This document shows positions 23,389-23,867 of a DNA stretch of 64,000 nucleotides, piece by piece. The notes below the pieces were generated by a model. That model did not search any database, had not been told where the DNA came from, and saw only the letters and a list, made by a program, of their open reading frames with translations. The position numbers and the translations under genes were made by a program. The stretch spans positions 1-64,000 of the IMG/VR virus record IMGVR_UViG_3300037400_006508; one strand, written 5' to 3'. The DNA comes from a virus. Its lineage: Duplodnaviria; Caudoviricetes. Within the stretch, counting starts at the first letter, position 1, and each line of letters starts with the position of its first letter.

Positions 23389-23867
23389 TGGTGCGACGGC
23401 GACCCATATCAGCTAAGGTCTTCAGAGCGACGACGTTTCGGTCGTCTCACAGCGACGACCTCCCACGTCGTCGCCTGCGAAACCATAGCATCGACCAGTA
23501 CAGACAGAAGTACGGGTCTCCGTCGTACCACATGGCTCGTACGTGCAGATTCACGGCGCGATCTCTAAGGTGTCGCTCTCCGACCGGCGAGTACATCTCC
23601 GCACAGCGAGATGTCCTCGACCGGCGGACCCGCTCCGCCAGGAGGATCGCCCCAGATCAAGGGATACAGTCAAAAGAACGCACGTACGAGAAAAAAGGCT
23701 AGCAACCGGAAAGCCGGCCGGACCTTTCTAAGATCCGACTCTACACCCGCCGAGCTTGCGACTGGGGCGCCGGGAACAACACCCGGCTGCCCAGTCGAAG
23801 CTTCGCAGGCGAGCTGCGGATCTGTACGATCAGGTTGTACAGCCAGCCGAACCCGGCCGGCTTCCGG
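23389..23867 (+). ncRNA. Second array of 3 structured units of the same type (23389-23530, 23536-23690, 23706-23867)
   Basis: Closing stems TGGTGCGACGGCGACCC/GGGTCTCCGTCGTACCA, CTCGTACGTGC/GCACGTACGAG, CCGGAAAGCCGGCCGG/CCGGCCGGCTTCCGG; each carries ATCR-N5-TACAG. Confidence 0.85.

Follow-up and report, generated by a model that had tools for sequence, protein, structure and literature searches.

We conclude that the three structured units following the large accessory gene of this locus (units 10, 11 and 12, hereafter array 2) are very probably three more non-coding RNA (ncRNA) template units of a phage-borne UG27 reverse-transcriptase (RT) system. The window, as we call the whole stretch of DNA analysed, takes up the opening 64 kb of a virus record of 143.5 kb, for which a completeness of 95% is given. 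On its + strand an RT gene is followed by array 1 (nine units), a small accessory gene, two cargo genes, a large accessory gene and array 2 (three units), as follows:

18499..19788, + strand: reverse transcriptase, UG27 group, 429 aa (PADLOC RT_UG27, Pfam RVT_1; YSDD at residues 226-229)
19795..21158, + strand: array 1, nine ncRNA units u1-u9 of 114-172 nt each (motif matches, folds, z-scores, covariance model R3)
21172..21684, + strand: small accessory protein (sORF, cluster 346), 170 aa (PADLOC RTas346, E 4.7e-46)
21681..21962, + strand: X1, 93 aa (strong RBS; ATGA overlap with the sORF stop)
21976..22299, + strand: X2, 107 aa (RBS present)
22326..23378, + strand: large accessory protein (bORF, cluster 337), 350 aa (PADLOC RTas337, E 7.4e-68)
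23390..23530, + strand: unit 10 (closing stem of 15 pairs in a 17-nt stretch; 5' loop ATATCA; ATC at 23490)
23536..23690, + strand: unit 11 (perfect 11-bp closing stem; AGATTCA; ATC at 23656)
23706..23868, + strand: unit 12, the terminal unit (GC-rich closing stem of ~15 bp with a one-base bulge; ATC at 23829)

The locus is a UG27 reverse-transcriptase system; it represents no novel kind of element, such systems having been described before, in 2022 and in 2026. Residues 1-429 of the RT align to positions 1-420 of the PADLOC RT_UG27 profile with 608 bits (E 1.5e-183), the second-best PADLOC model being RT_UG26 at 125 bits. The small accessory protein is 54-59% identical to its clade relatives, and the large one shows 40-91% identity to its own relatives and aligns over its length with a protein of Alistipes putredinis. 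In gut phages, Mestre et al. (2022) found UG27 together with clusters 346 and 337 and with a putative ncRNA (PMC9226505). The 'Minerva' preprint of September 2026 describes UG27 loci as containing variable arrays of ~135-167-nt units, which have a basal hairpin, a central one and, as loop motifs, AUC-N7-UANAG and UUYA, some of the loci carrying additional units in neighbouring intergenic regions (bioRxiv 10.64898/2026.09.22.753630). Five such systems, expressed in E. coli, yielded 50-100-nt ssDNA that started at AUC and ended after UUYA, and synthesis required the YSDD motif and both accessory ORFs; no evident targets of the units were reported (same preprint). 

The large accessory protein also carries an invariant N-terminal CPxCG knuckle, with a weak Pfam Zn_ribbon_4 match (E 0.008), and Cys/His residues in RKCxG and FHxC motifs are conserved throughout the clade relatives and also in the protein of A. 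putredinis. Two neighbouring genes keep their position in the clade relatives: a DUF6926 gene (16475-17206) just upstream of the RT and an RNA ligase gene (PF09414; 26686-28299), which lies 2.8-5 kb downstream of the system. A blastn search against the phage collection gave one weak RT match only, and an IMG/VR search with the RT alone returned no relative.

The first-pass annotation had reasoned that, with units lying on both sides of the four enclosed ORFs, all four are probably part of the system. This holds for 21172-21684 and 22326-23378, which match RTas346 and RTas337, and not for X1 and X2, for which the step from flanking units to membership is not supported. Neither X1 nor X2 had a family match in profile searches, and among the fetched relatives the pair was present in L056 only (L056:5356-5974), at 95% and 99% identity, respectively. 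In the same relative the adjacent large accessory protein is just 53% and the RT ~76% identical to those of the window, a disparity which points to recent exchange of a small gene cassette. Other relatives have unrelated small genes (of two other families) or none in the slot between the accessory genes. Beyond L056, the databases gave just one convincing cluster for X1 (59%, among 1.84 billion representatives) and a single other cluster for X2 (95%, in 5.8 billion proteins). Judged from these comparisons, X1 and X2 are variable cargo and not core parts.

Reading and folding of the sequence gave one layout for all 12 units. From 5' to 3', a closing stem is followed by a loop of 6-9 nt that ends in TTCA or a near variant, then by an imperfect hairpin of 71-132 nt, the motif ATC-N6-TANAG and a spacer of 10 nt, or occasionally 11, before the closing stem is completed by its 3' strand. 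All three units behind the 350-aa gene lie on the + strand and keep the ATC-N6-TACAG-N10 geometry exactly. The annotation made from the letters had proposed three further units here with the motifs of the upstream array, and this was confirmed, their geometry being that of units 1-9. Its remark that array 2 has the longer closing stems also holds (15, 11 and ~15 pairs, compared with 4-8 in array 1), the two strands in unit 11 being CTCGTACGTGC/GCACGTACGAG, with 11 perfect pairs. On reading the sequence, its tallies of TACAG in 9/12 units and of N9-CG in 10/12 proved correct (units 9 and 12 are the exceptions to the latter), as did that of ATCR-N5-TANAG in 12/12, with nine matches in array 1 and three in array 2. 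The canonical 5' motif is seen within array 2 in unit 11 only (AGATTCA), unit 10 having ATATCA and unit 12 TTTCTA, the motifs of the latter reading TTTCTA-AGATC...GATCT-GTACG. Array 2 had further been taken to mark the boundary of the system, and it does form the downstream edge: the gene that follows (23888-24106) is equipped with an RBS of its own, and its equivalent in L056 begins 82 bp after the large accessory gene with no unit between.

The motif is strongly concentrated at the locus. Across the 64-kb window, ATCR-N5-TANAG has 13 matches, all on the + strand, against ~1.7 expected, and none of 100 shuffles reached 13. Nine of them fall in 19920-21138 and three at 23490, 23656 and 23829; the remaining one, at 50394, was dismissed as a chance match inside coding sequence without array context. 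All 12 units out-fold their own dinucleotide shuffles by far, with z-scores of -7.8, -6.1 and -8.7 for units 10, 11 and 12, which are among the strongest of the locus (-3.9 to -9.1 for array-1 units; mean of -1.1 for control segments). A pattern scan of the 143.5-kb phage genome found only scattered single, chance-like matches outside both arrays and no further array. BLAST of the 12 units against the same genome gave only 12-15-nt matches (E >= 0.017). The units are thus without meaningful complementarity to the remaining phage genome, in agreement with the preprint's statement that there are no evident targets.

Relatives of the system were collected on metagenome contigs of up to ~200 kb, with RTs 65-97% and large accessory proteins 42-91% identical to those of the window. 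The numbers of units after the large accessory gene are:

window: 3
L052, L053 and L054: 2 each
L003, L004, L008 and L055: 1 each
L056: 0, with a terminator-like hairpin in the 82-bp gap
relative with a 97% identical RT: 469-bp gap, known from gene calls only, with room for ~3

In the comparison of synteny in related phages, suggested as a check at the outset, the eight clade relatives with DNA thus have 0-2 units at this place. Unit 11 has orthologues in L052, L053 and L054, in which 15/41 pairs carry a change in each strand without loss of pairing. For unit 12, orthologues occur in L003, L004, L052, L053, L054 and L055; 8/23 of the consensus pairs are changed on both sides, again with pairing kept. 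These orthologues share TTTCTAAGATC, GATCTNTAC(G)ATCA and AGCCGAAC, and their closing stems differ yet remain complementary. No orthologue of unit 10 was found in the DNA of the fetched relatives, leaving this unit without comparative support. A scan of IMG/VR with the unit-12 signature returned 43 stretches, all rejected as chance, with no ATC...TANAG following.

The same arrangement extends beyond the clade. A scan of bacterial genomes yielded 80 UG27 loci (L057-L136), mostly Bacteroidales prophages with RT identities of ~57% or less; there was no close prophage copy, the best being 57-58% identical over full length. At 47/61 loci (the 61 being those with enough downstream sequence) at least one ATC-N6/7-T[AG]NAG match lies within 700 nt after the large accessory gene, against an estimated chance expectation of ~0.17 per locus. 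The first such match is usually 113-136 nt past the stop codon, and up to four are found at unit spacing. In A. putredinis DSM 17216, a strain of a species named among the tested systems (bioRxiv 10.64898/2026.09.22.753630), seven units follow the RT and one the large accessory gene. A unit after the large accessory gene is therefore a normal, conserved feature of the UG27 family. The bases after TANAG read nAATGCCCC in 23 distinct first post-gene units (C at 91% in three positions) and nAATGTGCC in 169 array units, a difference which hints at a terminal-unit subtype of its own throughout the family. As another mark of post-gene units, a 'TAC' linker ahead of ATC was considered and not used, being just weakly enriched (29% vs 12%).

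Covariance models gave a less clear picture. The check proposed for array 2, namely a covariance model from units 1-9 applied to units 10-12, had a mixed outcome; the models built here are weak, as genuine units 8 and 9 score poorly too. A MAFFT alignment of the nine units was rejected with the 5' ends of units 7 and 8 misplaced, as was model R1 (four training units), which was overfitted and matched only units 1 and 5 beyond its training set. Models R2 and R3 consist of a 6-bp closing stem and sequence only, the central hairpin being absent because the alignment tool failed to place the variable hairpins. R2 was built from eight array-1 units, with unit 8 held out. In 128 kb, unit 11 came out best among its matches outside the training set, with 17.8 bits and E 0.021, followed by unit 12 with 12.1 bits and E 0.54; unit 10 and the genuine, held-out unit 8 were both missed. 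Applied to the arrays of three related contigs, R2 matched 23 units, and these served to build R3. On the window, R3 recovered u1-u7 with E-values of 4.5e-14 to 2.5e-8, unit 11 at E 0.019, unit 8 at E 0.24, unit 10 at E 4.9 and unit 12 at E 6.5, and missed unit 9. Its match at 447-606 (E 0.029) lies within the family A DNA polymerase gene and is taken as a false positive, GGCC-AGTTCA and ATC being present there and TANAG absent; the E-value of ~0.02 for unit 11 is at the same level as this false match. Covariance-model support for units 10-12 is marginal, and R2 and R3 learn mostly the array-1 flavour of loop sequence.

A descriptor trained on units 1-9 only, combining two position matrices with the closing stem at fixed geometry, separated two of the three units from background. 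Units 11 and 10 reached 43.5 and 38.0, respectively, more than the best score of any of 40 simulated windows (mean 25.5, highest 33.5). With 24.4, unit 12 stayed within this null distribution; the descriptor does not capture its 5' motif and bulged stem. A further flag at 21951 was discarded as an A-rich RBS region without ATC.

A single transcript probably covers the RT through array 2, since a search of the + strand from 18000 to 24600 gave neither promoter-like nor terminator-like sites. By analogy with the systems tested in the preprint, the RT and both accessory proteins would copy every unit's central hairpin, synthesis starting at the AUC of the AUC-N6-UANAG loop and stopping after the UUYA-like motif on the other side. 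The predicted templates are ~23408-23492 (unit 10), ~23550-23658 (unit 11) and ~23726-23831 (unit 12), and going by the motif positions the products would be minus-strand ssDNA hairpins of ~85, ~109 and ~106 nt, respectively. The closing stem and the two loop motifs may serve as the recognition scaffold, with the variable hairpin as the payload.

Other readings of array 2 have to be set against this one. The post-gene units, above all unit 12, could form a specialised subtype that ends the operon transcript or regulates the system and does not just supply templates, which we regard as unlikely. The terminal unit does have its own clade signature (TTTCTAAGATC ... GATCTNTAC(G)ATCA ... AGCCGAAC) with a covarying closing stem, the nAATGCCCC of bacterial-genome post-gene units (n=23) sets these apart from array units with nAATGTGCC (n=169), and in L056 an ordinary terminator-like hairpin replaces the unit at the terminal position. 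Moreover, in five relatives 4-6 T directly follow the GC-rich 3' strand of the closing stem, in the manner of an intrinsic terminator (L003:11364-11395, L008:9497-9525, L052:7353-7380, L054:7360-7385 and L055:7162-7190). However, this T run is absent after unit 12 of the window and after that of L053, the terminator scan of the + strand found nothing, and unit 12 keeps all features of a template unit; the roles of template and of terminator or regulator are in any case not mutually exclusive. A wider proposal, which we put forward tentatively and consider rather doubtful, is that the terminal unit is distinct, widely conserved and perhaps transcript-ending, and that the slot between the accessory genes swaps small cargo acting in concert with the hairpin cDNAs. 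The texts of the two UG27 papers (PMC9226505; bioRxiv 10.64898/2026.09.22.753630) put forward neither of these ideas.

It is quite improbable that units 10-12 are decaying duplicates no longer used by the RT. The divergent 5' motifs of units 10 and 12, the poor covariance-model scores and a post-gene unit number ranging from 0 to 3 among relatives would fit decay. Against it, compensatory changes keep the pairing in the orthologues of units 11 and 12, ATC-N6-TACAG-N10 is exact in all three units, their folding z-scores rank with the strongest of the locus, and post-gene units are widespread in the UG27 family. Hardly credible at all is the idea that the region is protein-coding (ORFs 23391-23702 or 23611-24048) or consists of unrelated hairpins with a chance motif. 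Open reading frames of 103 and 145 aa do span it, but they are not conserved, the whole interval measures just 82 bp in L056, and substitutions between orthologues are compensatory in stems. Chance would have to place three motifs within 353 bp, at unit spacing and on the strand of the system, when ~1.7 are expected per whole window.

As in other UG27 systems, the RT and the small and large accessory proteins match the family profiles, the RT has YSDD, the system is phage-borne, and an array of sequence-diverse units with basal stem, central hairpin and the loop motifs AUC...UANAG and UUYA is complemented by extra units in a neighbouring intergenic region; gain or loss of single units between close relatives is another shared trait. 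There are several differences. Spacing here is AUC-N6-UANAG and not the N7 of the preprint, which is seen in the clade relative L003; units 10 and 12 are without the canonical TTCA; two to three variable small genes lie between the accessory genes; and the large accessory gene is followed by three units instead of one. With a length of just 114-122 nt and 5' loops of 6-9 nt, many of the units would fit the preprint's no-pseudoknot class. The phage has a 143-kb genome of 57% G+C, and the RT of its clade reaches just ~57% identity to the closest prophage copies known from bacterial genomes.

Other types of element compare less well. The likeness to retrons lies in a structured ncRNA with a long-range closing stem and a dedicated RT giving rise to a short ssDNA hairpin, which for the present locus would hold by analogy. 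A retron was nevertheless rejected: the RT scores ~29-39 bits on PADLOC models that we take to represent retron RT types, among them RT_I-B, RT_II-A and RT_III-A at ~29 bits, against 608 bits for UG27, and there are 12 units with no Rfam match. Unlike retrons, UG27 has many units per RT and not one, and synthesis needs two unrelated accessory proteins; a match to the retron-type RT domain has been noted for UG27 (bioRxiv 10.64898/2026.09.22.753630). Those class 2 UG/Abi RTs that use an ncRNA as template, DRT2 and DRT9 among them, share the RT superfamily with UG27 and likewise have the template encoded beside the RT. From one ncRNA, however, they produce homopolymers or cDNA that is long or concatemeric, and they serve in host defence, whereas UG27 gives short hairpins from many units and is phage-borne. 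A CRISPR array was rejected as well, as the units share short motifs only (mean column identity 40%) and each is an inverted-repeat structure. ARAGORN detected no tRNA, and no Rfam family matched at gathering score.

A split array is standard in UG27 systems. The biochemistry of these systems, in which many short hairpin cDNAs are made from an RNA array, has been published, and their biological role has not. To this the locus adds a divergent, high-GC, large-phage UG27 clade with unusually compact units. Its conserved terminal unit, the variation between 0 and 3 post-gene units and the exchangeable slot between the accessory genes are possible guides for experiments on that role.

Two further observations concern the region of the RT and array 1 in the clade relatives. 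In L055 (L055:1388-3927) the UG27 RT ends early, after 362 aa, and an IS605-family TnpB (OrfB_IS605, Cas12f1-like_TNB) comes next, which has the look of an insertion into the 3' end of the RT gene or the head of the array. L002, whose RT is 97% identical to that of the window, has one extra unit between the RT and its unit 1 orthologue (L002:1589 vs 19795 in the window), so that these near-identical phages differ by the gain or loss of one unit.
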